The notes: a model not told the origin generated them from the letters alone. DNA of 64,000 nucleotides from Flaccisagitta enflata (GCA_965153355.1 OZ231126.1:29698001-29762000); one strand, 5' to 3'. Counted from the stretch's first letter, positions 26,443 through 50,623 are shown. Translations and numbers: made by a program.

Positions 26443-29065
26443 TTATATGCCAGACATGGGGCAGCACAAGTTATCTAGGATGAGCGTGACGTCGATGCCG
26501 TAGAGATCGGCCAGTTCCTCGAGAAAGACTCGATCTCCGATCGGATCCAAACCCAATTCGATGAGAGACTCGGTGGTCAAAGTCCGTTCGCCGGAGACCG
26601 ACGCGTCGAATAGAGTCTGGAATAAGTGGGTGTTGAGCTCCGAGAAAAAGGAAAGGATGGCCGATTCGGACGCCGACGCCGGACATGATCTGCGCGCGAG
26701 GCGAAATGATGAATGAATCAGCTACTTAGAAAGTTACCGAACTTTAAGAATTTGAGAAAAGCTTTAAAGATTCCTCATGTCTAGTTACACACAGTTGAAT
26801 GAAAAAAAAATAGCTAAATGGAAAACTATGAGTGATGCATGATGCATGTAGTAACTATTCGGTGAGGGCTCACAAGGCCCTATTCCATATTTCTCAGTTT
26901 TGGTATTTTGAGAGCTATTATTTCTCTTGTCATAGTCTAACCTGAGCATGTGGGTCAATTTTTGGAATCTGGCTTTGTCGGCGACATTGGGTTTGGCAAC
27001 GGCTTGTAAGGTCGGAACGTGGGTTGTTATCACTTGGTTATCCACGTACACGTCGTAAAGGGAAGTTTTATTTTCAAAGATCTTCTCTGTCGTACCTGAA
27101 AATATTAGGCGTTCGGATAATTACGGCCCGTTGTTGCGAGTGTTGAATGTTCAGCGAGCCAAAACTGTCTCATACAAGCTTTGCAGCCCTCAGACTGGAC
27201 TGTCTAGTTAGCAACAACAGATTAGTCCGTCAAGTTATCTACAGTGAATCGGCAAAGAGAAGCCTATTGTTGTTGGATCTCTCCAGTTGTTGCTTACAGG
27301 CCATGATAATGTTCTTTTCTGTCTCCAAATTGGAGATGTCAGCCACATTGATGTAAAAGTAAGGCATCAGCTCTCTCCTGTCTGCTAGATCCGAAAATCC
27401 GTGGGAACCCAGGCAGCGGGCGCAATATACTGAAACAAACAGTTAATTTCACCACTTGGGTTGGTTATTATTTTATTTTAGAAAGAGAACAAATGATGAT
27501 CAATCTTTTCTTCCATGAGTAATGTTTTCATCAATTGGACAATGGCCGATCATTGAAAATACCTTTGTAACAAACAACTCCGATAGGTGGTTGTGCATAA
27601 AACAGTATCCTCCGCTTCAGAAGAACAAACTTCCAAATGACGAAAATGTTTTCGCCGAAGTATTTGATGAATTGACTGAAGCTACCCGACGGATAGGACA
27701 CCTGACATGAGTTTATATTGGTTTTTCTGTTGAAATGCATTACCGATTCAATTGTTAATGCCATTTTTTTGACGTACTCGCTATTTTCCTTCCTTTACTC
27801 AATGCTCACTTCCTTCCCATAGTCTGGTTAATGTCTAGTTTCAAGGCCGGATTCACGGCTAATAAGTAGTCGGTTGTGGGTAGGCAGGGGCAGTAATGCA
27901 ATGGGCGGGGGCTGTTATGTGGCAGGGCAAAGGCAGTAATACTCAGAAATTGATACACCCGAATTCGCGTTATTCAAATGTTTATGTGACGGACGGGCCT
28001 ATCTACTAAGCGGCACACCCTCACATAAAGCTGCTGCTTAGCAAGCGACTAATAGTAATAATTAGGGATGGAGATGAGGCGACGTACCGAAAAGCTTGAG
28101 AGAATTTCGCTTTGAGATGAGATCGATTGTGAAATTGTTAATCTGGTTTGCTTGTGGTTTAGGTAATATTCTTCTAATGCAGTAAATTCGCCCGGAGAGG
28201 AGAGTTGTGACCTTAGATGGAGAAAGGATTGTACAAAAGACCCAAATTTGGCCTTGCACGTGATGTGGAACACTTGCACATAGATTGATAGCGATTTGAC
28301 CTGGGGCCATTTATTTGCATTTGGGTATGATTCAGCAATGCCACTTACTTGACTTGTTCCTCTAAAAACGGTTTGTGTAAGTGGAGGTACTCAAATGAGG
28401 GCGATAGGACGCCCACGGATTTCATTCGAGCTCCTCTCTCTAATTCACTATGGCTTAGCGTTAGTTTTTCATAGCAGGCTAGTCCATACATATCGCCGTA
28501 TTTGAAGTACCTATATAGAAAGAAAGGCTCATTTGCTGCTGTAAACACGAAGCTTTCGTATTTGGTGTGGTGCGCGGTGAAACATCGTCGTAGGGGTCTG
28601 TTCAAGGAGGTTTATTGGCAAGTAGTGTATTGATGCAGAGTTATTGTAATTGTATTTAATACTTACACAAAATCATTTTGGAGTTTATGGGAGCCACTGG
28701 GAAGGCTTTTGAATTCAATTCCCTCCAAATTTAGGTTCACCGGATAGACCCATTCAATAATGTTTCCTGTTAGTGAATTTTATTAGTTTAAGTAAACAAC
28801 ACTGATAGAGGGCCCTGTCTGCTTTTATGAAATTTCTAATTCTGTCTTTGGACAAAGTGCAGTTCATTTGCTCACCGGATCTTGTGTCAAAGGTAACGAC
28901 AAATACGCCGGTGACATTTGAGTGAGACAAAGGAGATCTGACTAGATTTGTTCTACCGGAGACGTTGTTCACTTTGGACGCTTCGACTTGTCCGTCACCC
29001 GTTCCTTGATTTGTCACCAGCTCGTTGGAAACTAGCATGTCTCTGTCCGAATTGGTTGCCATCAT
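26443..29065 (-). CDS. DENND11: DENN domain-containing protein 11 (LCHN/KIAA1147); 8 exons: 29065-28876, 28766-28667, 28510-28349, 28211-28088, 27701-27563, 27429-27298, 27095-26942, 26689-26443
   Basis: Motifs VFVVTFDTRSGNIIEW, LEGIEFKSLPSGSHK, ELERGARMKSVGVLSP, YFYINVADI, YDVYVDNQ and the C-terminal LGLDPIGDRVFLEELADLYGIDVTLILDNLCCP match DENND11 as I recall it. Confidence 0.92.
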
Positions 29066-31485
29066 ATCCACGGGTGATCGGGTTATGAATCAGGATATTG
29101 GTTCTTATATTCATATGTTATCCATTTGTTTTTAAGTAGCTTCCGCGTTTTCAAATGGTTTTAATCGGTTTATCACTTCATTATAAAACTGATGGTTGAA
29201 CAAGAGACGTCTGCACCATTGAATCGCGTCATTCCAGACACCATGACCTCTGGTGGAAGAAGAGGAGGACCACGACTCTCTTCTTAGCAACCCAAATTGA
29301 TTTAGATGTCGCCTTTGAAGCAGATCGGAAGCTCCATCGGAGTGCATCCTCTTTCGATCATTTTGTGTGGATGTGCCGGAATGTTCCAAGTCGGAGGAAA
29401 CACAGCGGTGTCAATATTATCAAATGACATTGGAAAACTAAACTGGAACAGGTGAATTCTCGGCTCAAAAGGTTGGCTGTCTTGGTATTTGAATGCTTTC
29501 CATATGTGGTCATGGATCAATTTGCCGGCAGGGATTGGTCTGTGAGTTCGCCATCTTCCTTCAGCTTGGCAGGTAGTTAAGGACGGATTGGTAGTTTTCT
29601 GTGCATTTTGAATGGAAGCAACAGTGGCATAAAACTCGCACCTGCTCCTTATGAACGTTTTTGGTGCTTACTAATAATAACAGACATTCGCCGCAGCCCG
29701 TCAAGAAACTGCACACGGAGCCATGTGGGTCCAAGAATATCAGTTGAGCTTCTTGTGACAATGAAACAAAAAAAAAAAAAAAAAAAAAAAAGACCGAAAA
29801 CACCGAAACGTCAACAATATCAACTGTCATCTTTCGCGATTCTTCTGGAGATCTCTGAGTCAACAGCTTTTCATTAATCAATTGTTTGCATCAAATGGCA
29901 ATTCTTGATGAATTTTGCAATCATTTTTTTTTGCCACATCGAGTTATTTCTCGATGTGGTCTATAACATAGCTTTGAACGTGTAGTGAGTCGTTGTTAGT
30001 TTGTTTGTTGTCGTGTCAACCCTTAAAAACTTGAGAACCACAACTCAGATGTTGATGAATCTTGGTCAGTGTTATTTTAGGGCATTAATAACCTGTGTAC
30101 CAACTTTCAACAACATTCATAAATATTTGATACCCTTTGTCTATTATTTTTGTAGTAATATTAATTCCTGGACTTGTGCAATTTACATAGGGGAAGGGTA
30201 GTGAAGGTTCACCAATGTTGTTCAAACTTGTTGTGAAGGTTCATTGCATCAATTAAAGCTCCCCTGCAAGATTTCAGATAATTCTGAGTATTGGTTTTGA
30301 AGATATTAGGGTATTTTGCTAGTAATATTAATTCCTGGACTTGTGCAATTTACATAGGGGAAGGGTAGTAAAGGTTCACCAATGTTGTTCAAACTTGTTG
30401 TGAAGGTTCATTGCAGCAAAAAAAGCTCCCCTGCAAGATTTCAGTAAATTCTGAGTATTGGTTAAGAAGATATAAGGGTATTTATGATTTACCTAGTCTA
30501 GTAACATTATTTCCTAGACTAATGATTTTTTTTTTTTGAAAAAATAAAACTTTTGGAGAAAAAAGATTTTTTTTTTGAAAAAATTTTGTGGTTATCATCT
30601 TTTATTTTTTTTGCGTTTCTGTACATATAGTGTATATGTAGTGATAAAACGAAGAGGCAATCTTTAAGCTTAAAAGTTAAAAAACTGAAAAAAGTTCTTA
30701 GGAAGGTGACTGAAGTTTTGATTTAGGTCATGGTGTACAGGAACAGGAAATTTTGGTTTCATTTTACTTTTTGCATGTGATATACAATTACAATCAAAAA
30801 ATATTATTAGAATTTCAGTTAGATATTTCTAATATAATGCATAAGGTGTTATAATAATGTATTTAGACCCAAAATACTGACTATAGTTTCATAATGATCA
30901 GAAGTGAAAATTAAAAATTTGAATTTTTTAAAAAATGGTGAACAAAATTTTGAAACGTTGTTAGGTGAAATTATATTACAGCCTCAGTTAAGAAAATTTT
31001 GCATTTCTAAGAATATGGCCCTTTTCTTATATGTTTTTAAAAATAGGCCATGTTTTCGGAAATGCAAATTTTTTAATTTTTATGCAATTATATAATTTCA
31101 CCTAACAGGAGTGAGATGACAAAATATAATTTTCTATAAAAAATCTTCTTTCTACCTTTTTTCGATACATTATGTACATCAAATCTGTATTTCAGAGATT
31201 ATCTATGCAAAAATTTACTGATCAACAGTTGAAAAATATTTTTTCAGAAAAAAAAAAATTAGCTAAAAATGATGTAAAAAATATCTCAAAAATTATAATG
31301 ACGCATGAAATTTCTTCTTCCCGTACACTGCGTCTTAGGAAAAAAGTCTTTCACTCAATTGTTTTCATCGTTTGTCCTCTGTTCTTCCTTCTACCTATAC
31401 TTTTGACCGAAATGAAGTGTGCCCCTGCGATGTTCACACTTGAAAATCATTAACATTGTCAAAGCTACAAAGACACTTACCGAGA

Positions 31486-31758
31486 ATGGTGACTGAGGAC
31501 AAGCCATATCGCGTGTCATTCGAGCTTCCCTTTGACACTGAGGAGCACGCGACAATCGCCAGTCGGACGTTGAAGGTGGATGCGGAGCCGAAGCGCAGCG
31601 CCACCGAGCGTCACTTTCAAGTGGACGACCGTCTCCTCAGAGTGGAGATTCGATCTTGCGAACCCAAATACCTGCGCGTCGCCACCAACGCGCTACTAGA
31701 CCATCTCCAACTCATCATCGAAACCATCGAGCTTTTTAAGCTCGAGAACTTTCAATAA
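31486..31758 (+). CDS. LAGE3: EKC/KEOPS complex subunit Pcc1/LAGE3, single exon, 90 aa
   Basis: ELPFDTEEHATIASRTLKVDAEPKRS...LRVATNALLDHLQLIIETIELF is the Pcc1 family pattern. The first ATG is at 31486. Confidence 0.88.
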   Translation: MVTEDKPYRVSFELPFDTEEHATIASRTLKVDAEPKRSATERHFQVDDRLLRVEIRSCEPKYLRVATNALLDHLQLIIETIELFKLENFQ

Positions 31759-31815
31759 ATCTTTTTTTTCGCTGTCAAACTATCACAATCTCTAAAGCGA
31801 ACGGTCACATGCAAA

Positions 31816-32881
31816 ATGGACAAATTCGTGATCCGAAAACGCAAAAGTAATGATGCAATGGAACTTGATCCGGAATTCGAAAAAAAGCGGGCAAAAACTC
31901 CATTACCGTTCAAAAAGATCCAATCTGACAATCTGGATTGTGAATACGGACTCGTTTACTCCCGCGAGGAAGCTCGAGATCTTCTCCAGAGGTGCGAGGA
32001 GGAACTTTCCTACTTCACGGGCCCATTGAGCAAAGTCTTCGTCTTTGGCAAATGGCACGATATTCCCAGAAAGCAAGTGAGATTGGACTGAGATCGTGCA
32101 TTCGTGATTGTAAGGATTTAATGACAAACAATATCCCAATCTCAATTGAGATGAAACCTTTCTGATTTCGCTCTTCTTTAATTCTCCTAGGTGGCATTTG
32201 GTGACGATGGTCTGACTTACAAATACTCAAACAATGTGGTTCCCGCGCGAAGTTGGACGCCTTTGATGCGTAAGATCAAGAACGACGTTGAAACCGCTTC
32301 CGGTCAGAGCTTCAATTTCGTCCTCGTCAATCGATATGCAGGTTCTCTTTTTTTCCCATTGCTGCTCAATGGTCCTTCGGCCTCTAATATATCTGGCTAG
32401 GCTTCTTGGCTGTTTGAATTTCATCCAAGTGAAATCAAAATCATTCATGCCACTTGTTGCCGCTTTCAATCAGATGGCGGTGACCACATGGGCGAGCACA
32501 AAGACGATGAAGAGGAACTGGTGAAAGGGTCTCCGATAGCTTCCTTATCTTTAGGCCAAGAGCGCGATTTTGTATTTCGTCATCAAGATGCACGCGGCGC
32601 CTCCGCAAAAGTGGGTCTTTGCTTTATTGAATAAGTTTTCTATTTGACTTAAGTACCTGACATAGTCTCACGCTTTTTGACGTTGCTCCTTAATTAATCA
32701 GAAATCCTCGGCCACGCCTCCGTCTCCTGTCAAGCTGAAGCTCGAATCCGGCAGCTTGTTGATGATGAACTTTCCGACCAACGACTTTTGGTACCACTCT
32801 TTGCCGAAACGTAGCGTCAAATCCGCTCCCAATGTCAGAATTAACATGACATTCCGTCACATGATTCACGTTCAAAGATGA
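31816..32881 (+). CDS. ALKBH2: AlkB homolog 2 DNA demethylase; exons 31816-32076, 32191-32341, 32474-32610, 32702-32881
   Basis: Motifs VFGKWHDIPRKQVAFGDDGLTYKYS, FNFVLVNRYADGGDHMGEHKDDE (HxD), SPIASLSLGQERDFVFRH, WYHSLPKR and RINMTFR. Confidence 0.93.
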
Positions 32882-32971
32882 TCTTGTTGCTACTGCGATT
32901 TGCGTTGCTATGTTAATGTTCCATTTTCTGCAGTGTTTGATCTTAGTATTTATTTGTCAAAACAATAAACA

Positions 32972-35271
32972 ATGACTTCTCACGGAAAGACGATGTTGAA
33001 GAAGAAACTGTCTGTGAAAGAGCGAATAGAACCATTTTACTTGGGTGGGTCTGTGGCGTATAGTGGCGATGGCTCGCGAGTCTACTGTCAATTCAAGAAT
33101 CACATCAAAGTTCTCAGCGTCGAAGCTGGCAAACAAATCGGACAATGCGGTGATTATTGTCATCTTATGTTTTCGGAAAATCTGTTAAATCTCCACTTCT
33201 TAATCAACTACAATGTGCGAGAACTATCATTTGTTTATCCTCTCTAGTCTATGGTTTTATGCATATTGTTATATTTTGAAATACCCAACTGCCATTCTAT
33301 TTCCAATTAACATATAACACCATTTTAATTAACAATTTAACAGGATCTGAGGATGACGAGGAATTGACTTGTTTCGCTCTGAGTCCCGACGATAGTCAAT
33401 TAGTCAGCGCTTCTCGCGGCTTGCTGATGGTACAATGGGATCCTCAAACCCAGACGCCGTCGAGGACGTGGAAATCCGCGCATCAACTTCCGGTCGAAGT
33501 CATGACCTTCGATTCCACCTCCACTCTCTTGGCCTCCGGCGGCGCGGATGGCACTGTCAAGATTTATGACATGGTCAGTTTGCTGATGAAGATGGTCAGT
33601 TTGCTACAGGGTGTTTCAAGTGAGTTGCAACATAAAGAATCGACATATCTTTGCTTGTAGGAGCTTAAATCAATTTCTGAAAAAAGTTTTATAAAGATCT
33701 TGGTCTTCAGTTTTTGCATGCAAAATTTCATGATAATCAGACAACTCATTTAGACACCACATATCTGAGAAGAACATATGCGATTTCTATCCTTATCAAT
33801 CTTTATTTTTTTACTTCTTACTGTACTTGGAAGTAGCTCTCTTTAGCTGCGTGCCATTTTTTTTACTAATTGAGCTAGAACCCTAGAATTGGTCTCAAAT
33901 CACAGATAATTTGTCAAAGATTTCAGATCTCTTAAAAAATTTGGCAGGTTTTCACTTTTTAAGAAAAAATTTGATTGACCTTTGCAAAAATTGCAATCAA
34001 TGTTTTGATGAGGTTTGACCAAAATCATTAGTAAAGCTATTAAGCGTTCAAAGTTTCCCTGATTTCAAAGCAGATAAGCGATCTATGTTAAATTATCTTT
34101 CATTTGAGACCAATCCCAAGGTATTAGCTCAATTCGTTTAAAAATAGCAGGCACTTGAAGTAAGCTACTGGTAGGTACATCTATAAAAAAGATAATTTTC
34201 CACTGGAAAAGACTGTTCTTTTGATTTTTTACTGACACACATCTATCAATTACTCAAAGTTGAGGTTTGGTATGAAGAAACTGAAGACCAAGATCTTTGT
34301 AGATTTTTTTTCAGAAATCATTTAGAGTTCCTAGAAGCAGAGATATGTCGATTCATCATGTTGCAACTCACTTGAAACACCCTGTATTAAAGATGGTCAG
34401 TTGGTTGAATGAGATGGTCGGTTGGTTGATTGAGATGGTCAGTTTTTGAAAAAGGTCTGTTTGTTGATAAAGACGGTCAGTTTGTTGATAAAGATGGTGT
34501 CTGATAAAGCTAAAAAGTGTTAATTAGTGGACGTTATGATGGTTTAACTCTATGAAGTTCTACTGCCACTTATGTTTTGCCCATTTTAGGTTCACGCTTA
34601 CTGCACGCACAATTTACGCATTCATAAAGGCGTCGTCAAGTTGGTTCAATTTCATCCCGACATTTCCCGACTACAAATTTTTACCTCGAGTGGAGATTTT
34701 AAGATAAGAGTTTGGAATCTTCAAACCAGCGAGATTCTGGCCGTCTTGGACAAACACTTCAGGTGCTTGAAATTTGCTGCCTCTGTTTTCCTCGACTTAT
34801 TCTTTTGTTCTACTGAATGCTGCACTTGTTTTTCTTTAAATTTTATTTTCCAGCTTTTTTTTCATTCCTGATCTTTTTTAGTTGCGGACACGCAACTCTT
34901 ATAAGAGGCTTTGTCCGTCCGTCCATCGGTTGGTTGGTTGGTCAGTCCGTAGAGATGATCAAGTTGAAAACGCGAAAAAGTCATATTTTTGATACTCCAG
35001 TTGGTATGTGAGTTTGTGAGCGTGTGGGAGGGGGTTGGGGGTGGGGTTGGGTTGAGGCTGGGGTTGGATGCCCCTGCCCACCCGTCCGCAACGATATTGT
35101 GACCCCGCGTCACTTGTTTTCTCCTCATGCAATTCTTGTTAATTTTGTTTTAACTTACCCTTCCTTTTCTTTCTTTGTCCTTCCCTCATTTCTTTTCCTG
35201 AGCCTTTCATCCTTTCCTGAGCATTTCATCCTTCCCTTTCTCCTTGCTTTCCTTCCTTCTTACTCTCCTTT

Positions 35272-35302
<31 letters not shown>

Positions 35303-36333
35303 CTTTCTTTCTTTTTTTCGTAGTCCCTTTCCTTTCCTTCTTCCCGCCTGCTTATCGCTCCTTCTTTCTTTTCCATTGTATTTCTTTCATTCTCACTTTC
35401 CATCCCTCAACCCTCGTCCTTAACCTCGCCTTTTCACTCTCCCCACGTCGATCCTTATCAGTCTGGTGACGTCTCTGGCATTCGATCGTGGAGGAAATTG
35501 GTTATTTTCCTCTTCCTGCGACCGGGTTCTCGTCGCCTGGGATTTGACGACATTTGAAGCCGCCAAAGTCACGGCGCTATCCGAAGACATTCGCGCCGTC
35601 ATCGCGCTTCCTCAGGACGCTTTGAAAGGCGCCGTCGATACGGGAAAGAAAGCTTCCTCGTCATCTTCCTCATCAGCCGCTTCGTCGGATTTGGCGCTTT
35701 GCGTCGGCAGTTCCGGCAAAATTCGCGTCGTCGATCCTTTCAACTCTCAAATACTCTTCTCTCAGAAAGAAAGTTTACTTGGAGGATTCGGCGCCGCGGA
35801 TGACGAGCAGCAGGTGACGGGCAATGATGTTGCAACTAAATCGCTTTAATAAGTACCGTATTCGCCAACATAATCACTGCTTGGCAGTTCATTGAAGACC
35901 ACTGAAATCGCGAGTCTTCTCTTTTTGGGCAGCGGCCCCGAAGGGCCGATGTCCTGTAGGACACAGGGTCGAACTGTCTGACAATACGTACGTCCCCCCC
36001 CCCAGCGCCAAAGCTTCTCAAGCCTAAAATATCCACCAAATAATATGGGAAATTGACAAAATGCAATTTACCCATTGAATAACATGGAAAATTAACCAAA
36101 AAAAAATGAAAAGTTTCCATTTGATAACATGGCATATTGACGAGAAGTTGAAATAAATGCAAAATTGAATATCATGGAAAATAGCTACCAAGGCCTCATA
36201 TATGCCCTCTAATAACATATGGAAATTCACCCCTCTGTCCTAATGGACATCGGCCCTTTGGGGCCGCTGCCCTGCTCTCACTCCAATTCTTCAGCTAATA
36301 ACTCCAAGCAGGGCAGTGCAATCCTTGGTTGAC

Positions 36334-36387
<54 letters not shown>

Positions 36388-39300
36388 CGCTCGCTCGCTC
36401 TCTCTCTCTCTATCTATCTCTATCTATCTCTATCTATCTCTATCTATCTCTATCTATCTCTCCCTCCTCCCCCCCCCTCTCTCTCTCTCTCCTTTTCTCT
36501 CCCTCCTCTTACTTCCATACCCCCCTCCCCTCCTCAAAAAAGTTGAAACTGTAAACTGATCTGTTTACTGTATTCAGGTTGATTCCGTGGTGTCGACTGC
36601 GATTTATCTTCGCTCAGCCAACTCAGTTTCTATCGTCTCCAACTTTCACCACATTTTCCACGCCTCACTCTATGATCTCTCCAAACCGGAAAAAGTCTTT
36701 ATGGGTGAGCTTGAATGTAGTTTGAATTTATCGATTTAAAAGTATTTTCTTGATCCTTATCTGTATACGGTTTCCATATAGGCTCGTGAATGTTGCTCGC
36801 TTGATCCACCCAACACTGAAAATATGATAATGATATCGTCGAACTCGTATGGATGAAGTTGAATGTAATACATACATCATTACATGTTCTTAAAGATCCG
36901 GTTTTTAATCGAGATCATTGAAACCAGTTTGGGGATTTTGTTGGTTGTAGGGAATAACGACGAGGTGCTGTCGCTACGACTCATTAACGACGACTCTTTA
37001 CTAGCCGTTGTCACTAATTCCCCCGACATCAAGCTTTACCATGTCGAGACTTTCAACTGCAGGGTAAGTAAATTGCTGCCGTCTTCTTTGGTATAGCAAT
37101 ATTTGCTGGCTGGCTGGCTGACTGACTGACTGACTGACTGACTGACTTACTGGAAAACGAACAAGTTTCTAAGATACCTACTATATGTAATTTCAAACCC
37201 TTCCTTATAAAAACCCCCAGCTTCTTCAAGGACACGAGAAGACGGTTTTGGGCATTGACAATAACGAGAGGCGACGCATTTTGGCTTCGGTCTCAAAAGA
37301 CGCCACGTGTCGCATTTGGAGTTACAAAGACGCCGAAAACGTCGTGTGCGTGGCGTTGGCTTCCGGTCACGCCAAAAGCATCATCGCCTGCGCCTTTTCC
37401 AAACTCGACGGCAGCTTCGTCGTAACTGGTTCGTGAGAGTTGCAGTTTTTGCCTCCTTACCAACTTAAGTGTTATATTTGCTCCTTTCCTATATGTAAGC
37501 TATATGTAAGCGTATGAACATGACCGCACATGCAGCATTCTTACGAGGAATTGCTTCTCACACCCATCTCCTTTCTTTCAAGGTTTGCTTCCACTTAACT
37601 CACGTTCAGTCCACCTTTAACACTTCACACTGTGATGGCCCTCTCCAAAGGCTTTCCTTTTTTCCCTCCCTCACTTGTTTTATCCACAATCCTGTCCAAT
37701 TTCTCCAACGTCGCTTTTCTGCGCGAGCTGTCTTTCATGTTTGTTGTTCATCTTTCCCCGACCCCGCTTGATCAGGTGGGGAAGACATGACGTTGAAATC
37801 TTGGAAGGTGTCGTCCAAATTGACCTCTTCCGCGGCCTCCACGACGGAAAATTCAGAAACCAAGAAACTGAAATCTATTTTCACTTCCGCCGCCGCTCAC
37901 GCCAAAGATATCAACTCCATCTCACTTTCACCCAACGACAAATTCATCGCTACTGCATCTCAGGACAAAACCGGTGAATACGAAACAGTCTTACGCAGGG
38001 TTTTATTCAATGTATTTAAGACCCAGTTTGAAGATATGCGTTCAAGGGCAACGGTGAAGAAATTGCCGAAGGCCAGTAAAATTCAAATCAAGCGATAATA
38101 TAAAATATCAGCTGCTTGTTAATTTACCTAAGGGATTTCCTCCGTATTTCTTCTCTCAGCTAAACTTTGGTCGAGTGAAGACGGGAAGCTGTTGGGGGTT
38201 TTCAGCGGTCACCGACGAGGTGTTTGGTGTGTCGATTTTTCACCCGTCGATCAAATCCTCGGTATGTCTGTGTTGAATTTGGAAGGAGTTACTCATGGCG
38301 TCAGTTTGCCCACCTTCTCTTCAGTCATGTTCATTTATGTTTGTCCCAACCTCGCCGTTTCTACCTCAATGCCTCTTTTTTCCTCTACCCTGCTCTCTGT
38401 CTCTTTAACATGGTAACCCTTTCTCCTTCTCCTCCTCCTCCTCTATCTCCCCTTCCCCTTCCACAGCCACGTCCAGCGCCGACGGTACTCTCAAGTTGTG
38501 GGCGTTGTCTGATTTTTCGTGCATTAAGTCGATCGACGCTCACGACGCCTCCGTCTTGAATTTCTCCTTCGTCACTCGTGGCATGCAAATCGTCTCCGCG
38601 GGAGCTGATGGACTCCTCAAAGTGAGACACTGAAATTTGTTTGCTTCCTGACTGGTCTAGGCCACTCAGCCAATGTTGTGGTCCGGGAACTAAGATAGCC
38701 ATGATGGCAGATTTGAAAACTACCTCCTCCTCCTACTCCCTCTTTTCACTCTCTTCGATACTCCTCTTCCTTGCCTCTCCTCCCTCTCTCCTCACCCCTC
38801 CTCCCCCCGTTTCAGTTATGGACGATCAAAAACTCTGAATGCGCTGGAAGTTTCGATCTTCACGACGCCAAAATTTGGGCTTTGGCGACTGCCTCCAACG
38901 GCGCGCGTGTGTTGACGGGCGCCGCCGACGGCAGAATCCTCTTCCTAGAAGATGTCACCGAATTGGAGGAAATCGAAGAAGCTGGAAAAAGGGAAAAGAA
39001 AATATTACAAGACCAAAACCTCGCCAATTGCCTGCAGCAAAAGGTTTGATACCGTAATATGTGGCTTGTGCAACAATTTATCCTATATAAAACTCATACA
39101 ATTAATCAAAAGGAAACAGAAATTGAACAAAATTTGGAAAAGATATGGACATTTATATAGTGTAAGCTTCCATTACATACACATACATACCTAATCTGTG
39201 GTCTTTTGAAACACTATCAAAATTCCTTAGGCATATACTTTTTACTAAATGTGTCATATTTTCCTATCTTTAAAAATAAATATCTTAAGATTTTATTAAG

Positions 39301-40036
39301 AAATAATGAATATTTTAGGGAAAGGGTGTTGTTAGAGCTGTCTTCTGGCATTGATCGGGACCATCAACTCAGCCCAATTTTGGTTAGAGTTGACCTAATT
39401 GATAAAAGAGAACCAAGGTGTCCATATCCCTAGTTGAGCCCCTTTATCCTAATTAGGGGGGGTGGGATTTAGGAGTATTTATACTATATATTTGGTTAAG
39501 GTAATGATTTTAAGTGATTAAAGGGAAAATGGCCTTCATCCTCAAAGAAGATATATCATGAAGGGTAAAAAAGTTTTAGTACATGTCCAAAAATTTTCTA
39601 TCAAACCATACAGCTTCTGGTCATCAGTTGGAGTCCTGTACCTTAAAGGGTTTCGACCCATATATATATACATATATACATACAAAAGTATCCACATACA
39701 TATATATACACCTCCAAGACCCAAGTACAGGCGGGTCGCACTTCAACAAAAGTGCCCTCCACTGTTTGGTTTGAAGAGATCAAGAAAATCTTCAGGAATC
39801 GGCCATGGGATTGAAAATCATGTGTATCATGTGCCGCTTGAAATAAATGAAATAACATGTTGAAATTTTTATGTCGTTCATTATTGAACATCGGCGGCTG
39901 ATTTTCATTTGTTTTCTGGCTCTTGGTAATTAAAATCGTCATACATATGTACTCAAGAAAGCGATTAAATGAGGGAGATTTCCATTCGAGTGCAAAACTG
40001 CAGATTTTACCCTTGCAACTCTCTTTCTTTCTTCTT

Positions 40037-40077
<41 letters not shown>

Positions 40078-40165
40078 ATATATATATATTATTCTCTATG
40101 TATATCTATATATATATATTTATATTATCTCTCTCATCTCTCTCTCTTTCTGTTTCTCTTATCTC

Positions 40166-40216
<51 letters not shown>

Positions 40217-40734
40217 TCTCTCTTCTCTCTCTCTTCTATCTCTTTCTCTCTCTCTCTAAAATATCTCTCTCTCGCTCTATCGTCTCTATATATATATATA
40301 TATATAACAATATATATATATCTTATTATATCTTTATTATATCAAACGCTCTTCTATTATAAATAACTATATATTATACATATATATATATATATAAACT
40401 TATCTATATCTTATATATCTCGCTCTTTCTCTTCTGTCTTTCTCTATTCTTTATTATCTATCTCTTCGCTTTCGCTCTATCGCTATATATATATATATAT
40501 ATTTTCTCGCTCTATTCTCTCTCTTATATATATAAATATATAAATAACTCTATAATTATTATATCTATATTATATATATTATATATATATATCTCTCTTT
40601 CTCTTATTCATCTCTCTCTCTCTCTCTCTCTATATTCTCTCGCTCTTCTATATATGCTTATATATTTATATATAACATCGTTAACTTTTATTAGCATATA
40701 TATAACTTATATATTATTATAACATATATATCCT

Positions 40735-40767
<33 letters not shown>

Positions 40768-40912
40768 ATATCTATCTCTCTATTTATATCTATCTCTATT
40801 ATCTCTCTTATTCTCTCTATTTCTCTCTTTCTCTTATCTCACTCTCTATTATCTCTCTCTATATATCTCTTTCTATTATATCTATCTCTTTCTTTCTCTC
40901 TTCTCTTTCTTT

Positions 40913-41005
<93 letters not shown>

Positions 41006-42094
41006 GTCTTGTTTCGATTTCTGTCAGTGTCGACGACTGTCTGTCTAACCTTTGTTTTTCAGTCAATCCTTTTTCTGTCAATATTCTTTCTGTCAATCCT
41101 TTTTCTGTCTTCACCGAATCTCTCCTCTTGTCTGTCTTTCCTTTCTTTGTCAAATTGAATCTCTCCCTCTCTCCTCGAATGACGTCAAACTTGCGTCAGA
41201 GAGGAAATTGACGTCAGGATTGTGGAGTTGCAATCCCATGATTACGCGCGTTTGCACGTGCCTAATAGACGAACAAACAATCTCTCCCGTTTTACCTTAA
41301 TGAAGAAAATTTTTTATCTTTATGAGCCAGTGTTTGCGTCCGAGAAATTCCAATTCTAAATTCTCGCGAGTTACACAAGTCGTTTAAATTCGCCGACTCG
41401 CGACGCGTTTTAAGGCTTTGGCCGTCTGTTCCTTTTCTTCTAATTTTCTTCCCATAGCTCACTCCTCTTCTCTAATATCTACCAAATGGATTGTCATTCT
41501 GCCCCATCCCCGCCCCCTATCCTTTCATTACCTTTTCCACAGGATTTCACGAAAGCGTTTATCCTGGCGCTGGACTTGAATCGGCCTCGCGACTTGCTAA
41601 AGATCTCCAACTCTCTCCTGTCCCTTCCCGATTGGCGCCCGCGTCTCGAGTCTATTCTCAAGCGTCTCCGCGTCGAGGATCAAGTCGAGGCGCTGCTGTC
41701 TCACGTCAAGACGTGGAACGCCAACGGAAGAACGTGTAACGTGGCGCAGACGCTTTTGGAGCTTCTGTTGCGCGTGCGCGACGTGGACGAACTGACAAAA
41801 GACGTGCCTAATATTGTCGGAATCGTGGAAAGTCTGACGCCGTTTACGCAGAGACATTACGACCGACTGCAGTTGTTGACGCAGCAAGCGACGTTTTTAG
41901 ACTATCTTTGGAACTCTATGAGACTAGAAGCCACGACGGAAGAAGATAATGGTGACAATGAGAACGAGAATGATTTTGATAACGTGATCGAACGGACTAA
42001 AGCTGAGGATTCTAAGATGGAAGAGGACGGTGGTGACGCTGATAGGGACTCGGATAGCGGAGTTATGGAGGAAGATAGCGAAACGGAAACATGA
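32972..42094 (+). CDS. TBL3: Transducin beta-like 3 / UTP13 (SSU processome WD40 protein); 12 exons: 32972-33149, 33344-33573, 34590-34762, 35462-35813, 36578-36704, 36951-37063, 37221-37428, 37776-37973, 38160-38261, 38467-38621, 38816-39043, 41543-42094
   Basis: Motifs IEPFYLGGSV, FDSTSTLLASGGADG, AHAKDINSISLSPNDKFIATASQDKTAKLW, GHRRGVWCVDFSPVDQIL, and a Utp13 C-terminal domain (WNANGRTCNVAQ, PFTQRHYDRL). Confidence 0.95.
33607..34384. mobile_element. Tc1/mariner-like MITE in TBL3 intron 2
   Basis: TA|CAGGGTGTTTCAAGTGAGTTGCAACAT...ATGTTGCAACTCACTTGAAACACCCTG|TA. Confidence 0.92.
34874..35120 (+). mobile_element. Short Helentron/DINE-1-like repeat, representative copy. Relatives at about 5504-5761, 8260-8492, 11585-11784(-), 11930-12444(-), 16679-16866, 23489-24071, 25885-26433, 27842-28030(-), 45961-46113(-), 46745-46842(-)
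   Basis: T-run, 5' hairpin AGTTGCGGACACGCAACT, (GTCC/GTCG/GTTG)n microsatellite, and 3' CCTGCCCACCCGTCCGCAAC...CTTGTT. No TSD evident. Confidence 0.7.
35922..36337 (+). mobile_element. Second dispersed family with subterminal inverted repeats (relatives at ~47146-47710, ~49560-49697, ~63001-63800)
   Basis: GGGCAGCGGCCCC...GGGCCGATGTCCTGTAGGACAC at the left. GGACATCGGCCCTTTGGGGCCGCTGCCCTGCT...AAGCAGGGCA at the right. The interior is variable and repetitive. Confidence 0.75.
40020..41000. repeat. (CT)n/(AT)n low-complexity tract in the last TBL3 intron
   Basis: Directly visible. Confidence 0.95.
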
Positions 42095-42244
42095 TTTCAA
42101 GTCATTTATCCTTGGTTTTGAACGGCGCAATTGTGATCTTTCTTGTTATTATCTATTTGTTGAGAGGAGCGATTTTACTTGTTGTTGATCGTTGAAAGCC
42201 TTTTCCTTTTTCCAGGACCCTCAAATAAATAAGTAAATGATAAA

Positions 42245-45200
42245 ATGTCTCTGGCGGAGGAGTTGTTGGCCGATTTGGAGGATGATGACGCAGAGGTGGA
42301 GGAAGAAGAGGAGCACGACATCGCTGGCGAGAATGTCCTAGATACCATCAAGGAGGAGGATGAGGAAGAGGACGATGACATGGACGTCCACGACGGCGGT
42401 GGTGGTAGCAACAATGTAAGCGACGGTACGAAAGTAAAACAGGAAAAACCCTCTTCTACTTCCTCCATCGGCGACACTCGCGGAAAATCCATCCACGCCG
42501 TAGCCAAACTTAGCGGCTGCAAACGGTTCGTCGACACGATGACCGAATTGAGAGACTTTGTTCAAAAGCGGGTGACGTCTTTCATCTGCGGTCCGGCGGA
42601 GGCCGATCCCGAGTACCAACTCATCGTCCGCGCCAACAATCTAGCCGCCGAAATCGACCACGAGATGGCCACCGTCCACAAATTCGCCACTGACAATTAT
42701 TCCAAACGATTTCCGGAACTCGAATCTCTCGTACCCAATCCTTACGATTATATCAGGACGATCAAAGCTTTGGGCAATCAAGTGCAGAAGGCCAAAAGCA
42801 ACGAAGTCCTGGCGGAGATCCTGAAACCCGCGACGATTATGGTGGTGAGTGTGACGGCGTCGACGACGCAAGGCACGGATCTATCGCCGGACGAGTTGCA
42901 ACGGGTTTTGGAGGCCGTCGACATGGGGTTGGAACTGGTCGTCGCCAAGGAAGAGATCCTCCGTTACGTCGAGAGTCGTATGGGCGTGTTCGCGCCCAAT
43001 TTGACCATCATTTTGGGCGCCCCGACGGCGGCCAAGTTGATGGGCGTAGCCGGTGGATTGACTAACTTAGCGAAGATTCCCGCTTGTAACGTTCAGTTGC
43101 TCGGGTCCCAGAAACGTGGCGGCGCCTCGTCCGGATACAGCAACGTCTCTACGCTGCCGCACACCGGATACATCTTCCACAGCCCCGTCGTTCAGGCCGC
43201 GCCGTCGGTGAGTTGGGTGTGGTTAGACTTGAACATCACTCGTTACAGTAGTACATGCGGCCTTTCTTTTTGATTTTCTTTCTTTCTGTCTGTCTGTCTC
43301 TTTCTTTCTGCCTGCCTTTCTTTCTTTCTTTTTCTTACTTCTTCCTTCTTTGTTTTTTTTTTCTTTCTTTCTTTCTTTCTTTTCCTTTCTTCCTTTTTCT
43401 TTCCTTCTTTCTTTTTTCTTTCTTTCTTTCTATCTTTCTTTTTCTTTCTCTTTCTGTCTCTTTATCTTTCCTACTCTTTCTTACTCTTTTTCTCTTTCTT
43501 TCTCATTCTATCTCTCTTTTTTTCTCTCTTTCAGTCTTTCTCCCTTTTCTTTACGTAGTGGCGTTCCTGTTCCTCCTTTTCTTGGCCTTTCGTTTTCCGT
43601 AAATGCCTTTCTCAACAGAGTCAATAATTGTTCGAACTGGAACGAGTCCAAGCATCTCTAGAAGATGGTTAATCAAGCATATTGGGCCGTCGTGTTGTGA
43701 TGATTGAATGTTTTCGGTCGGTCTGTTGATCAAAACCAAACTTTTTAGCGTTTCAAGTAGCGATTTTCGCTCTATTGCCGCTGCCCACCCGCACGTGAAT
43801 GAGGTTTCCGTGTGTCTGGCCTTTTCATATTTCATTGTCATAACCGCAGTAATATGATACAGTTATGAAATCCTGACCGACCGACTGACAGACAAAAGTT
43901 TTGTAGTCACACCTCTTGCCTTTTAAGGGAGATGCTGATGGGCGATGAAAAGATTAGTTGGTGGGGTAGACGAGACCTTCTCCCTCTTTGCAGTTTTGTA
44001 TCAGAAGACATTCAGAAGTATCTAGTAACGTTTGTCTGTTTTGCAACTTGAGTTGCGCAATCTGTTTTATTGTTAGACTGTTGCCCCCATGACGTCACGC
44101 CTATCGCAAACGAAAATTCGGATATAACTATTTTATGATTAGAAACGTGATGCAATCGATTCCAGAATGAATAAACTCCGGCTTGCTTACCTCATCGTTG
44201 ATTACAGTCAATGACGCAAACGGTGGACCCGGAGGAAGAAATCAGGAATTCAGGGCATTCTATGGCTGTTTTCTATTCTTGCCTTCTCTTATCGAGCTTC
44301 GCTTTTGACGAATCGACTGACGTCAAGCGATGTTTCCAATTGCCATCTGAGGTCCAAATTTCGATGGGGTTGCGTCATTCAGACGGTTTGGTAGTTGAAT
44401 GATGGTTATGTAACTTAATCTTATGGCTATGATGTAAGAGCCCTGAGTTAGGAGACGAAAGGGGAGCAAGAACCTCTGCGACAACTTAAGTCTCGCTTCG
44501 CTTGTCTTTTTTCTCAGGATCTCCGCTTTAAAGTTCAGAAGCTTGTCGCGGCCAAGGCGACTTTGGCTGCCCGCGCTGACAGCCTCCATTCGGCGTCTGA
44601 TGGAAGCATCGGCGACAAGTTCCGCGCCGAACTCGAGGCCAAAATTGACAAGCTCATGGAACCGCCGCCCGTCAAAACCGTCAAAGCGCTTCCTCTGCCA
44701 CTCGAAGGACAACGGAAGAAGAGAGGAGGCAGAAGGTTTGTCTTCATTTTCATCTCCTCTTCTATCCTCCCTTTACAGATCTCCCTTCGTTCGCCTTTCT
44801 TTGCATTCTTCGTTTTCATCTCTCCCATCATTCCTATTCATCTTCTTATCCCTCCCTTTTCTTTTCCCTTCAGCTCCACCCTCGTAGCCTTTTTATCTCT
44901 GCATTTCTTTTTTCATCTTTTATATGAATCCTCTCCTCTCACACTCACCTCTTTGTGTCCTTTATTTTCATCCTATTTTTCCTCGCATCCTTTCTTTTCG
45001 GTCTTTTCTGCCCCTCATCTCTTCCCGTTACACCCCCCTCCTCTCATACTTCCAAGTTCCAACTTGTCTCTCCTTAACTCTTTTCTTTTCATCTTTTCCT
45101 CCTCCTCACATCACTCTCTTTATCATTTCCCCCTCAATGCACCATTTCTTTTCCTCTTCTCTTTTCCTATCAGTTTTTTTCTGTCTTCGGTTGTTAACCT

Positions 45201-48179
45201 TTTGGCCATCAATTTGGCAGCTGTCTCTCTTTTTTGCTTGCGTTTGGCACCTGCTTTTTCCAATCAATAGGGAAACAAAGCCTGATGCAGGATAAATTCT
45301 GTTGCATTTCGATAGGCTGTGTTTCTCACAAAAACACGCACGCTGTCATACGCACACTTCCTCAAAATGACCTCCTTTAAAAAACAGAGCACCCACAAAA
45401 ACACCCTTCCCCCTCCCCCACGGCCTACAGACACTTATCTACCAAAATTTGAGGTACCACATAAACACCAATCACCATACGCTTGCCCCACACATTATAC
45501 AAACAGAAAATAAAGGCATATTTGCAGGCCTGTATATTGTTCCGTATTCCCGGTGGGGGGGGGGGAAATAATCAAAGGGTTTGAAGAAAGGGAAGGAAAA
45601 GGAAGGAGGAAAAAAGAGAAAAAAAAGAAAAATTGGGGAAAATATAATTTTTGGCAATGGAAAATCATAAAACATGATGAGTAACATATAATTTAACACT
45701 ATTTAAACCTTAAACACCCAGTTTTAGTGGTTTATGGGGAAGAAAAACATTGATTTGGTAATGCGACGCGATGCGTCGCGGGGAAGAAAATCAAAGGCAG
45801 GGGGGGGGGGAAATAATCAAAGGTTATGGAATTATATACATGCAATTTTGTCTAACCGAGTGAGCTGCTGACACACCGAAACGTAGTTTGAAGAAATCGC
45901 TCGTTTACGACTAGAAAGCGTTCTTTATTATTCTTTTATGCGACCCGGAACTGCGCAGAAACAAGGCCGTATATACGGCAGCATTAGTCGCGGATGGGTG
46001 GGCAGGAGTGGAAAACCTCGAAAAGTGACTTTGTGACCGACGCGACGGACGGACGGACGGACGGACGGACGGACCGAAAAGGGGCTTATAGAGTCGCGTG
46101 TCCGCGACTAAAAACGATTGTCGTGAAATGTTGATTCTTGTTTCTTTTCCTCTCTTTGCATTGTTTGCTGAGTCATTCTCTCAGATTGAGTCGAACGAAA
46201 GTTCAAAAATCTCCTTTGCTTTGCACCGACTGCGTTGATTTAGTTTGATCTTTGATAAATCGAAGCCAAGCCGTTTTAAACGCTCGTATGTAAAGTCATT
46301 GCCTGGTTGTTTCGATTTATCGTTCGTTGCTGCCTTTTGCTCACTTTGTAATTTGCAACGTTCGACAACACCGTCGGTATGTTGAAGTGTGTCTGTATGT
46401 TGAAATCTTCGACATTGCTAGTTACTATACGATGCCATCTCTTTGACTCTAACCAGCAACCTGTTAAGTGTTAACCCTCTACAGATCAAAGCGTAATTGA
46501 ATGCGAGGCCCCAATGAAAACTGTAGCAGCCCCCCCAAGAGCCTAGTATACTAAAGGCCTCAAGCTGGGAATTGGGCCTCGAGGCTGGGATTTGGGCATT
46601 GAGGCCGGGATTTGGACATTGAGGCTGGGATTTGGGCCTTGCTGGGATTTGGGCCTCAAGGCTGGGATTTGGTCTTGAAGGGGAATGGGGGGGGGGTACA
46701 GAGAAGGAGGAGGAGGAGGAGGAAAAATTTCTCCTGAGTGAAAGTATGTCATCGGCCCCTTCGGGACCGACCGACCAACCGACCGACTGACCGACCAACG
46801 GACCGACATAGTGGGGTGGAGTTGCGTAGCACGCAACTTAAAATTGCCTTTTTGTCCGCGACGGAATACCGCGACGGAATACCAATTTGATACTTTGAAG
46901 TGCTAGAACTTGAGCTAGGGAACAAAATTTTAAAAAAACCCTCTGATGGCGCCATTTGTATTCTCATAAGCTTTCAAATGATACCTCAATCATAACCCTA
47001 GCTTCAACATACCGGGCTCTAGAGGGGCTGCTACAGTTATCTTTCCTGAAAGTGGGGGCCTCTCGTTCAAATACGCTCTAATCTATACTCTCCCTTCCGA
47101 GTCGGAAGTTTTGACATCCTCCTTCCACCTCTGCCTATTCGACTCTTTTTGGGCAGCGGCCCCAAAGGGCCAATGTCCTGGGCCAATGTCCTGTAGGACA
47201 CGGGGGATTTTCGAGACGTCAGTCCGTCTATCCGTCCGTCCTTCCGTCCCCCCTTGGTCATCGGAGCTTCAAGTCTGCAGTCTCAGGCCTGATTTTGGCC
47301 CTCTGAGCCCTCAAATTAGTCCTTTCAGACCTCAATTTAGCTCTTGAGAGCTCAAATCAGCTCTCCAGACCTCATATCTGCCCTCAAGACCTCAAATCAG
47401 CCCTCCAGACCTCAAATCCACCCTCCCGGCCTCAAATCAACTCATCAGGCCTTGAATTTGTCCTCCAGGCCTCAAGCCTGCCCCCCAAACCTCAAATCTG
47501 CTCTTCTGGACTAAATTCTGCCATCCCGATTTCAAATCTGCCTCAGGATGTCTCGAAATTCACCCGTGTCCTGCAGGACACGGGACCCGTGTCCTACAGG
47601 ACATCGGCCCTTTGGGGCCGCTGCCCTGCTCTCACTCCACTTCTTCACTTGATCACTCCAAGTAGGGCATCGGGCACCGCTGACCATGTGCGATCCTTGG
47701 ATGACTAGTTAAACCCTACCATCCTCTCTCTTTTTCGCTTTCAGGTACCGAAAAATGAAGGAGCGATTGGGAATGACTGAGATTCGCAAACAAGCGAATC
47801 GTTTGAACTTTGGCGAGATCGAGGCCGACGCTTATCAAGATGATTTGGGCTTCTCTATGGGAACGTTGAAAAAGGGTGGCAAAGGATCGGGTGGAATTCG
47901 CGCCGCGCAAGTCAACAAAGCCACCAACGCCAGAATGTCGCAAAAATTACAGAAGCATTTGGCCAAACAACAACAGGTGTGCTTTCAATCGATATTCTAT
48001 GCAAGTTTCTGCGTGTGTCGTTTGCTCCTTAGAATATGACGCTTTTGGATTGCTTTCCCATGACGCAGTGATAGACAGAGATCTCTTTTGAAGTTGAAGG
48101 TTTGCGATCAGAGGCTCTTATTAGTTGTGATACACTGATAATCCACTCTCACTAAAATGTTTTTAGATCATTGACAAGC

Positions 48180-48268
<89 letters not shown>

Positions 48269-49694
48269 TTCTCTCCTTTCTCTCTTTTCTCTCTCCTTTC
48301 CTCTCTCTCTCCTTTCTCTCTTTCTCTCTTTTCTCACCTTTCTCTCTTTTCTCTCTTTTCTCTCTTTTCTCTCCTTTCTCTCCTTTCTCTCCTCTCCTTT
48401 TTTCTTTCTCTCCTCTCCTTTCTCTCCTTTCTCTCCTTTCTCTCCTTTCTCTCCTTTCTCTCCTTTCTCTCCTTTCTCTCCTTTCTCTCCTTTCTCTCCT
48501 TTCTCTCCTTTCTCTCCTTTCTCTCCTTTCTCTCCTTTCTCTCCTTTCTCTCCTTTCTCTCCTTTCTCTCCTTTCTCTCCTTTCTCTCCTTTCTCTCCTT
48601 TCTCTCCTTTCTCTCCTTTCTCTCCTTTCTCTCCTTTCTCTCCTTTCTCTCTTTCTCTCCTTTCTCTCCTTTCTCTCCTTTCTCTCCTTTCTCTCCTTTC
48701 TCTCTTTTCTCTCTTTTCTCTCCTTTCTCTCCTTTCTCTCTTTTCTCTCTTTTCTCTCCTTTCTCTCCTTTCTCTCCTTTCTCTCCTTTCTCTCCTTTCT
48801 CTCCTTTCTCTCCTTTCTCTCCTTTCTCTCCTTTCTCTCCTTTCTCTCCTTTCTCTCCTTTCTCTCCTTTCTCTCCTTTCTCTCCTTTCTCTCCTTTCTC
48901 TCCTTTCTCTCCTTTCTCTCCTTTCTCTCTTTTCTCTCCTCTCTCTCCTTTCTCTCCTTTCTCTCCTTTCTCTCTTTTCTCTCTTCTCTCTCCCTCTTTC
49001 TCTGTCCGTCTGTCCCTCTCTTCGTCTCCGTCTCTTCCTTTCCCCTTCTCAGGGCTTTGTCTTCAAATCCAAGCAAAATGGCAAATCCAAGCAAAATGGC
49101 AAAATCCAAGCAAAATGGCTAAATTCTGGCTAGAAAACCTGAATTTTGGTCAAAATTCAATCATTTTGGCCCCTAAGATCTAGATCCTGGTTTCTTATAC
49201 CCAGATTCTGGCCTCTAAAACCCTAATCCTAGCCTCAGAGATCTAGATCTTGCTCTCTGTGACCCAGATTCTGGCCTCCAGGACCCAGGACCTGGCCTCA
49301 AGGCCCTAAATCCTGGCCTCAGAGACCCAAATCCTGGCCTCAGAGACTCCAACCCTGGCCTCTGAGACCCAGATTCTGGCCTCAGAGACCTAGATCCTGG
49401 CCTGCTCCCCCCCTCTACTTAACCTACAAACTTCTCAAGAAGAGCAGGGGTACCCTTGTCCATATACTGCCTTTTGTCATTTCTCCATGTTATTCAATGA
49501 GAGTTTGAATAACAGGGCTTCCTAGACAGAAGGCTGGCTGAGAGAAGGACGGACGGACGGATGGACGGACGGACAGATTCCCCCTGTGTTCTACAGGACT
49601 TCGTCCCCTTCGGGGCCGCTGCCCTGCTCCCCCTCAACCTAAATCACATACTACTCAAGCAGGGCACGGGTACCGCTGACCACTTACTGCCTTT

Positions 49695-49764
<70 letters not shown>

Positions 49765-49981
49765 GCTCTCTCTCCCACCCTTCCCCCGCCAACAGACTAC
49801 CTTTGGCGGTACAACGACGATTAAGAAGACTATTTCCGGAACTGCTTCATCGGTGGCGTTCACGCCGCTTCAAGGACTGGAGATCGTGAACCCGGGCGCG
49901 GCTGAAAAGAAATCAGCCGACGACAACAAATACTTTTCTCAAACCTCGGGATTCCAGAGCATCAGACCTAAAACTACGTGA
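42245..49981 (+). CDS. PRPF31: U4/U6 snRNP protein Prp31; exons 42245-43207, 44518-44735, 47745-47976, 49796-49981
   Basis: Motifs MSLAEELLADLE, EADPEYQLIVRANN, YSKRFPELESLV, GVAGGLTNLAKIPACN, RKKRGGRRYRKMKERLGMTEIRKQANR and SGTASSVAFTPLQGLEIVNP. Confidence 0.97.
48183..48995. repeat. (CT)n followed by an 11-bp polypyrimidine minisatellite
   Basis: (TCTCCTTTC)-type units giving ~800 bp of pure pyrimidine on the + strand. The unit length varies along the tract. Confidence 0.9.
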
Positions 49982-50623
49982 TCCATTTCCACGTGATATG
50001 ATGAAGCGTGTGATCTCTTTTTTGAGCTTCATTATTCTCACAAATTTCATTCCTTCTTTTTATTTCTTCCCTCCTTCCTGCCTACCTTCTTTTCCGCTTA
50101 CGTCTCCGCTTACCTTTCTATTTGTCTACTTCCTTTCTGCCAATCTTCCGGATCATCTTCCTTTTCTGCGTCCCTCCTCCCTCAACTTCCTCCATGCTCT
50201 CCCTCATCATGACCCCTTATCGCTTTCATTCTCATCTTTGTTATTCACGAAAATATATCGTGTATTTGTTATTGTTATTCCGTGAAGATATTTGTCTGAA
50301 CCCCATGATTCGCAGTCAAGTGGCCATGTTAGCTCTCGAGTCGAGACTAACGGCAAATGGCCCCAACTTGCATCATCGTCATCGAGCGTTCCTCCCTCTC
50401 TCCTCCCCTGTCCTTGTAGGTTATTTCATCGCAGTTATCACAGCTAAGTAGTCAGATCTCTCCCTTTGCCTCCTTCGTGGCAGAGCCCACCGGTTTCGTT
50501 TCATTTCGAGTACCAAACACGCAATACAGAGTAAGTAGCCAACATCGCGAAGTTAAAAGAGAAAAATTTAAAAGGAAATCTATCAATAAAAGTAAAACCG
50601 TAAAAGAAAAAAAAAAAGAAAAA

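Follow-up and report, generated by a model that had tools for sequence, protein, structure and literature searches.

How are the messengers of four tightly packed genes separated from one another, and are all of them separated? The question is raised by LAGE3, ALKBH2, TBL3 and PRPF31, which follow each other on the plus strand of a 64,000-nt stretch of the arrow worm (chaetognath) Flaccisagitta enflata (C1:29698001-29762000 of genome G000, which comprises 794 Mb in nine contigs); this whole stretch is called the window below. The stop-to-start distances are 57 nt for LAGE3-ALKBH2, 90 nt for ALKBH2-TBL3 and 150 nt for TBL3-PRPF31, and the same-strand spacing of all three pairs is within the <250 bp used as an operon criterion (PMC12460157). 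A sequence-only reading of the window had placed a putative trans-splice acceptor in each spacer, and had likened the order of poly(A) signal, U-rich run and acceptor AG to intercistronic signals that couple 3′ end formation to trans-splicing. The explanation favored here, to which a probability of about 0.72 is given as a whole, is that these four housekeeping genes constitute a chaetognath operon that is processed by spliced-leader trans-splicing.

Leader addition and the LAGE3-ALKBH2 junction

Four of 23 listed sequencing runs were aligned to positions 31330-33620: X1 and X2 (study P1) and X3 (study P2), which are RNA, and X13, which covers introns and therefore behaves as DNA. The RNA evidence consists of assembled contigs, which drop rare forms, and a contig that holds two genes is no proof of a single transcript. 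In all three RNA runs, and hence in both studies, the contigs start at 31418, directly after a genomic AG, and carry extra untemplated letters there (9, 7 and 6 in X1, X2 and X3, respectively). The nine letters of X1, the only ones listed, match in 9/9 positions the 3′ end shared by chaetognath leader forms 2, 3 and 4 (PMC2481426, Table 3), for which the chance estimated from base composition is about 1.2e-5. An upstream cis exon was rejected as the origin of these letters; followed by GT, they occur nowhere in the window. The spliced leader is thus joined to LAGE3 at 31418, the only site shown to bear it and one that was absent from the sequence-only reading.

From this leader the RNA contigs of X1, X2 and X3 run unbroken through LAGE3 and the spacer into ALKBH2, with three introns removed. 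One contig of 1210 nt spans from leader end to poly(A), and two more span both open reading frames (ORFs), although contigs are not molecules. At the contig level, then, the LAGE3-ALKBH2 junction is often left unresolved, in a leader-capped, spliced and polyadenylated two-ORF RNA of about 1.18 kb. DNA contamination behind this bridge was considered and rejected; the introns are spliced out there, while X13 covers them. A readthrough fusion of the two proteins was likewise rejected: in the window the two ORFs share a reading frame, but the spacer varies in length at 31759-31761 (3 nt longer in X1 and 2 nt longer in X3, with AATAAA intact), and the 2-nt insertion of X3 breaks the frame in one of the three RNA runs. 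A full cluster RNA that starts upstream of LAGE3 is proposed; in the contigs, only the LAGE3-ALKBH2 join is bridged.

This is the spacer that most resembles the nematode model. Its AATAAA over the LAGE3 stop, the T-run, and the AG, which ends at 31797 and leaves 18 nt to the ATG of ALKBH2 (31816), are all in place, and it is the only one of the three spacers with an upstream poly(A) hexamer. The leader-bearing 5′ end foreseen at 31798 was not seen in the three RNA contigs, which also have no loose end there and no tail near AATAAA. Crossing of the AGs by unspliced RNA from a local transcription start had been named as evidence to the contrary; the contigs come near to this, since 31797 is crossed unspliced in three of three, although the RNA that crosses it starts at the upstream leader and not locally.

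The lengths of related contigs bear on how general this RNA is. For all nine full-length ALKBH2 variants of the window's cluster the longest contig measures 1090-1350 nt, where 799 nt is predicted for ALKBH2 alone and 1179 nt for ALKBH2 with LAGE3; two of these nine lengths equal those of the X1 and X2 contigs and are not independent. Seven of 29 LAGE3 contigs are equal in length to one of 35 ALKBH2 contigs (the pairs include P0123/P0137, P0127/P0136, P0146/P0148, P0156/P0133, P0178/P0132 and P0143/P0183); a shift control gave a mean of 0.97 and reached seven in 3 of 100,000 trials. Six of the seven pairs have a full-length ALKBH2 and fall into five clusters of 70-79% identity, and the seventh is a 48-amino-acid exon fragment that is probably on DNA. 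These matches suggest that the LAGE3-ALKBH2 pairing is also present in five related lineages.

Several points weigh against this account of the junction. That the paired genes share a contig is deduced from the equal lengths, and the contigs are presumably from chaetognaths. The AG at 31797 resembles the proven acceptor at 31417, both being AAG with a long AG-free zone, and minor use of it could escape contigs that drop rare forms. The LAGE3 start stands in a strong context and four ATGs lie ahead of the ALKBH2 start, so that translation of the second cistron would be costly. Four of 28 full-length ALKBH2 relatives are on contigs with <330 nt outside the coding sequence, and Brugia has dicistronic intermediates that are fully cis-spliced (PMC1657053). 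It is conceivable, if unlikely, that all three junctions are trans-spliced, with LAGE3 RNA ending at AAUAAA or 31797, ALKBH2 receiving its leader at 31798, and the joined contigs representing a rarer unresolved intermediate from whose assembly the short leader and poly(A) branches were clipped. The 49-nt AG-free zone and T-run before 31797, like those of the proven acceptor, would fit such a scheme, as would the canonical AATAAA kept intact in the runs, the four short relatives, and the spliced dicistronic intermediates known elsewhere (PMC1657053, PMC1488885). However, the same runs bridge the LAGE3-ALKBH2 junction in three of three cases and the ALKBH2-TBL3 junction in none of three, in this cluster the longest contigs of the nine full-length ALKBH2 variants are in no case close to 800 nt and in no case long enough for a join to TBL3, and the pairing recurs by length in the five clusters. 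The two forms may well coexist, the two-ORF RNA being common and a leader-spliced ALKBH2 RNA minor. A farther-reaching proposal is made tentatively, at somewhat less than even odds: that splice-made 3′ ends are the rule and that arrow worms in general have retained LAGE3-ALKBH2 as a genuine mRNA for two proteins, in which the poly(A) signal and AG are ignored and ALKBH2 is the second cistron.

The ALKBH2-TBL3 and TBL3-PRPF31 junctions

At the ALKBH2-TBL3 junction the X1 contig ends on the G of the AG at 32933 and continues into 19 untemplated A; the genomic sequence beyond is not A-rich, and the tail stands after G and before T. The 90-nt spacer holds only two AGs (32933 and 32946), and none of 14 poly(A) hexamers tested is found in the 60 nt that precede 32933 or in those that precede 42215. 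Contigs that cross from ALKBH2 into TBL3 are present in none of the three RNA runs, and the DNA-like X13 runs through. This one contig shows an upstream RNA whose poly(A) tail begins on the G of AG 32933 with no AAUAAA ahead of it, which suggests that the junction is cut exactly at a splice acceptor and that poly(A) is added there. Full-length TBL3 lies on a contig of 2843 nt, compared with 2775 nt predicted for a spliced RNA from 32934 to 42215, so TBL3 is joined to neither neighbor, though neither end is fixed to the base by this comparison; the representative search returned no full-length close TBL3.

In the operon reading, transcription of LAGE3-ALKBH2-TBL3-PRPF31 would start upstream of LAGE3, where the leader is joined at 31418, and leader trans-splicing onto TBL3 at AG 32933 would make the cut. 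The released RNA, ending on AG and branched near its 3′ end, would be debranched and then polyadenylated, as proposed for Ciona, and 42215 would by analogy act alike for TBL3 and PRPF31. ALKBH2 protein would be made from the two-ORF RNA by leaky scanning or reinitiation, or from a minority trans-spliced at 31797; LAGE3 and ALKBH2 are each single-locus in G000, so both proteins must originate at this cluster.

Other observations at 32933 speak against so exact a cut. The contigs of X2 and X3 end at 32929 and 32908 (4 and 25 nt short), neither with a tail, and the poly(A)-on-G join is found in one contig of one run. No leader is observed on TBL3, for which the AG at 32946 is a second candidate; the separate, shallow TBL3 contigs start without leader at 32951 (depth 7.3) and 32948 (depth 2.75) and do not reach 32934. 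Ordinary cleavage with a non-canonical signal might have produced the 32933 tail, with TBL3 trans-spliced at 32946 or from other molecules, and with cutting and splicing separate or mutually exclusive. Such an explanation draws on the missing leader at 32934 and the TBL3 contig starts 1 and 4 nt past 32947, on the 3 nt that separate poly(A) site and acceptor in Spadella RPS14-PCNA (PMC2481426), and on mutual exclusivity having been raised by Satou et al. themselves (PMC1488885). It seems quite improbable, given that the tail falls exactly on one of the spacer's two AGs, at a G followed by T and with 0/14 hexamers upstream, and that the AG at 32946 has an AG-free zone of only 11 nt.

The three spacer AGs differ in strength. 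An acceptor matrix was built from 21 cis acceptors in the window, with 3245 plus-strand AGs as background; by this matrix 42215 is the strongest of the three (top 0.6%), 32933 is in the top 5% and 31797 is at the median (47.7%). A second score, AG-free zone plus pyrimidine content, puts 31797, 32933 and 42215 in the top 2.7%, 2.4% and 3.3%, respectively. The proven acceptor at 31417 has an AG-free zone of 69 nt, yet a low cis-matrix score.

From its rank, 42215 is likely the trans-splice acceptor of PRPF31. Counting against the assignment are the extent of the RNA alignment, which ends at 33620, and the length of two PRPF31 contigs. The contigs of the window's cluster measure 1977, 2244 and 2277 nt and are too short to hold TBL3, and the latter two are about 200 nt longer, at one end or the other, than an mRNA of 42216-50419. 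Four PRPF31 relatives have only 65-85 nt outside the coding sequence. A metagenome scan for PRPF31 5′ ends gave two matches, neither from this organism (one unrelated and one PRPF31 of another animal), and a search of G000 for a retrocopy of the TBL3-PRPF31 junction gave one match, the locus itself. The AGs at 32933 and 42215 could instead be the ends of introns in 5′ untranslated regions (UTRs), cis-spliced from internal promoters or upstream donors in genes that are simply packed closely. Donors are possible despite the missing GTRAG (weak GT sites are present, for example at 42101), and 42215 is outside the RNA-aligned region. This is nevertheless very improbable: no joint among the contigs ends at 32934, poly(A) stands on AG 32933, trans-splicing occurs at this very locus, and only 52 and 121 nt lie between the ALKBH2 and TBL3 stops and their respective AGs.

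The features that the sequence-only reading had described are confirmed, and its interpretation is partly supported. The AGs ending at 32933 and 42215 are in place, 38 nt before the TBL3 ATG (32972) and 29 nt before the PRPF31 ATG (42245). It was also correct that GTRAG is absent from the TBL3 stop (42094) to 42244, but this carries no information, because GTRAG is matched by no more than 7 among the window's 22 real donors, and a stretch of 121 nt would lack it by chance with P=0.87. The signature order of poly(A) signal, U-run and AG holds for the LAGE3-ALKBH2 spacer and fails for the other two. As to a coupling of 3′ end formation to trans-splicing, the organism does trans-splice (a leader end on LAGE3 and arrays of leader genes) and a 3′ end coincides with acceptor 32933; the model falls short in that the sole AAUAAA/U-rich/AG spacer is crossed unspliced in three of three and the resolved junction has neither AAUAAA nor a spacer.

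Leader-RNA genes, gene models and surroundings

When the leader motif followed by GT was searched for in G000, the first form gave 171 matches (7 in a reversed control) and the second 172 (12 in the control). The matches lie largely in tandem arrays, whose copies comprise a complete leader exon with a GT donor. Both leader families have in common the first six and exactly the last nine exon bases, as well as a motif of about 16 nt in the intron part; the nine shared bases would explain a contig that ends there. Only these nine, common to both families, are visible on the LAGE3 contigs; PMC12460157 and PMC2481426 report no chaetognath leader class specific to downstream genes. An Rfam search of five leader loci gave no match, and the fold of one leader gene was not better than shuffles (z -1.66). 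By the Sm-site consensus, no canonical site is found within 95 nt of the donor in nine of nine copies (L004-L012), nor in the part shared by the arrays. Outside the arrays, at L001, L028 and L030, a whole leader exon or only its 3′ portion runs into unrelated sequence; these are possibly retrocopies of trans-spliced RNAs.

The gene names are backed by Pfam (Pcc1, 2OG-FeII_Oxy_2, WD40 with Utp13, and Nop with Prp31_C, in gene order) and by named homologues. All exon models have open frames. The TBL3 model is 99.4% identical to P0347 across its full length, and between PRPF31 and its named animal homologues the identity is only about 50-60%. Coordinates are collected in Table 1.

Table 1. Features of the LAGE3-PRPF31 cluster in window positions, and leader-RNA gene arrays in the genome (aa, amino acids)
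Feature	Position	Strand	Description	Basis
LAGE3/Pcc1 (KEOPS subunit)	31486..31758	+	90 aa, single exon	Pfam PF09341; single genome match
ALKBH2	31816..32881	+	242 aa, 4 exons (31816-32076, 32191-32341, 32474-32610, 32702-32881), open frame	PF13532; single locus
TBL3/UTP13	32972..42094	+	871 aa, 12 exons, open model; one donor at 37429	PF08625
PRPF31	42245..49981	+	532 aa, 4 exons	Pfam and homologues
Trans-splice acceptor AG of LAGE3, first cluster gene	31416..31417	+	leader joins at 31418	3/3 RNA contigs
Upstream ORF in LAGE3 5′ UTR	31430..31453	+	7 codons, weak start context	sequence alone
AATAAA and T-run	31754..31769	+	AATAAA (31754-31759) overlapping LAGE3 stop (31756-31758), then T8 (31762-31769)	sequence; no poly(A) there in RNA contigs
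Candidate acceptor AG before ALKBH2	31796..31797	+	crossed unspliced	assembled RNA
AG at ALKBH2-TBL3 junction	32932..32933	+	poly(A) on its G	X1 contig end + 19 A
Second AG of ALKBH2-TBL3 spacer	32945..32946	+	possible alternative acceptor	sequence; TBL3 contigs begin at 32948, 32951
Strong pyrimidine tract and CAG	42199..42215	+	putative PRPF31 trans-splice acceptor	sequence rank
Leader-RNA gene family arrays	L004-L012, L023, L024 (C4, C5, C6, C7); L032-L034 (C3, C4, C5)			genome search

A DENND11-family gene on the minus strand (about 26440-29065) is oriented away from LAGE3, which probably makes LAGE3 the operon's first gene; a shared promoter region may lie within 29100-31400. Past PRPF31 the same-strand run goes on with an intronless 785-aa RRM ORF (50624-52981), a PP2A catalytic subunit gene (53483-58727) and a gamma-adaptin-like gene from about 60899; acceptor-like AGs lie at 50419 and 53386, and the gaps from PRPF31 onward are 642, 501 and 2171 nt. 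Possibly these genes belong to the operon as well. AATAAA also occurs 3′ of the acceptor AGs, inside the 5′ UTRs of TBL3 (32964-32969) and PRPF31 (42224-42229), as does ATTAAA at 53421 before the PP2A subunit gene; these hexamers may reflect A-rich UTRs alone, or a competing cleavage by which the downstream gene would be destroyed. The stretch from the ALKBH2/TBL3 start region to 42215 includes a long microsatellite.

Comparison with known systems and meaning

Operons and leaders are already known in chaetognaths; what is added here is a cut with no spacer and, probably, a dicistronic mRNA that is stable. In Paraspadella nearly half of the genes are trans-spliced and 18% are in operons (PMC12460157), and the published Spadella RPS14-PCNA operon has 3 nt from poly(A) site to acceptor, where the distance at 32933 would be 0 nt (PMC2481426). 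The present locus is like these operons in its leader families, gaps of <250 bp and housekeeping genes, and belongs with the chaetognath operons, not with the SL2-type ones. The RPS14-PCNA pair is adjacent in G000 too. Each of three PCNA genes (L020, L021 and L022, on C3, C6 and C5) follows a neighbor at short distance: an RPSA-like tail, a CNBP-like zinc-knuckle gene and RPS14, respectively, the first two neighbors being named by eye from translation. A literature search of incomplete coverage found no chaetognath report of a poly(A)-on-acceptor junction, a stable dicistron or a LAGE3-ALKBH2 pairing; the cluster is not mentioned in three supplements of PMC12460157, though it may yet stand in the Paraspadella operon table.

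The spacer of SL2-type operons carries a U-rich element. In C. elegans, SL2-type operons use a dedicated leader and space their genes by about 100 nt (PMC7986045), and SL1-type operons have little or no spacer and keep AAUAAA (PMC1488885). Here too the downstream genes would be resolved by trans-splicing, with little or no spacer as in the SL1 type, but neither type fits 32933, which has no hexamer and no spacer, and the one AAUAAA/U-run/AG spacer is read through. The geometry of 32933 is that of the intercistron-less junctions of Ciona intestinalis, where poly(A) stands on the G of the acceptor AG and the leader on the very next nucleotide (PMC1488885); shared with Ciona are the poly(A) on the acceptor G, the lack of AAUAAA within 40 nt upstream, and a leader on the first gene as well. 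The next-nucleotide leader is shown in Ciona, whereas at 32934 we infer it. Unresolved dicistronic cDNAs are rare in Ciona (PMC1488885), while LAGE3-ALKBH2 is joined in every assembly examined (3/3).

For the two-ORF RNA the closest parallel is in Drosophila, where the PIG-P mRNA carries a conserved upstream ORF that is Pcc1-like (CG14550; PMC2276209); there as here, Pcc1/LAGE3 is the short first ORF of a two-ORF RNA. The partner in F. enflata is ALKBH2 and not PIG-P, and would be translated as the second ORF. We know of no leader trans-splicing at the Drosophila Pcc1-like/PIG-P mRNA. If the two-protein mRNA is conserved as proposed, flies and arrow worms would each have made Pcc1/LAGE3 a first cistron on their own.

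The order AAUAAA/U-run/AG is no predictor of use: RNA passes straight through the spacer that looks most like the textbook, and the acceptor that is proven has a poor score. For Ciona, the 2006 study (PMC1488885) did not settle by what route a branched RNA released by splicing turns into a normal polyadenylated mRNA; the same junction geometry in a distant phylum provides a second place to study that step and suggests convergence. If, in addition, a dicistronic mRNA is conserved despite the presence of the splitting machinery, operon resolution would be chosen junction by junction.

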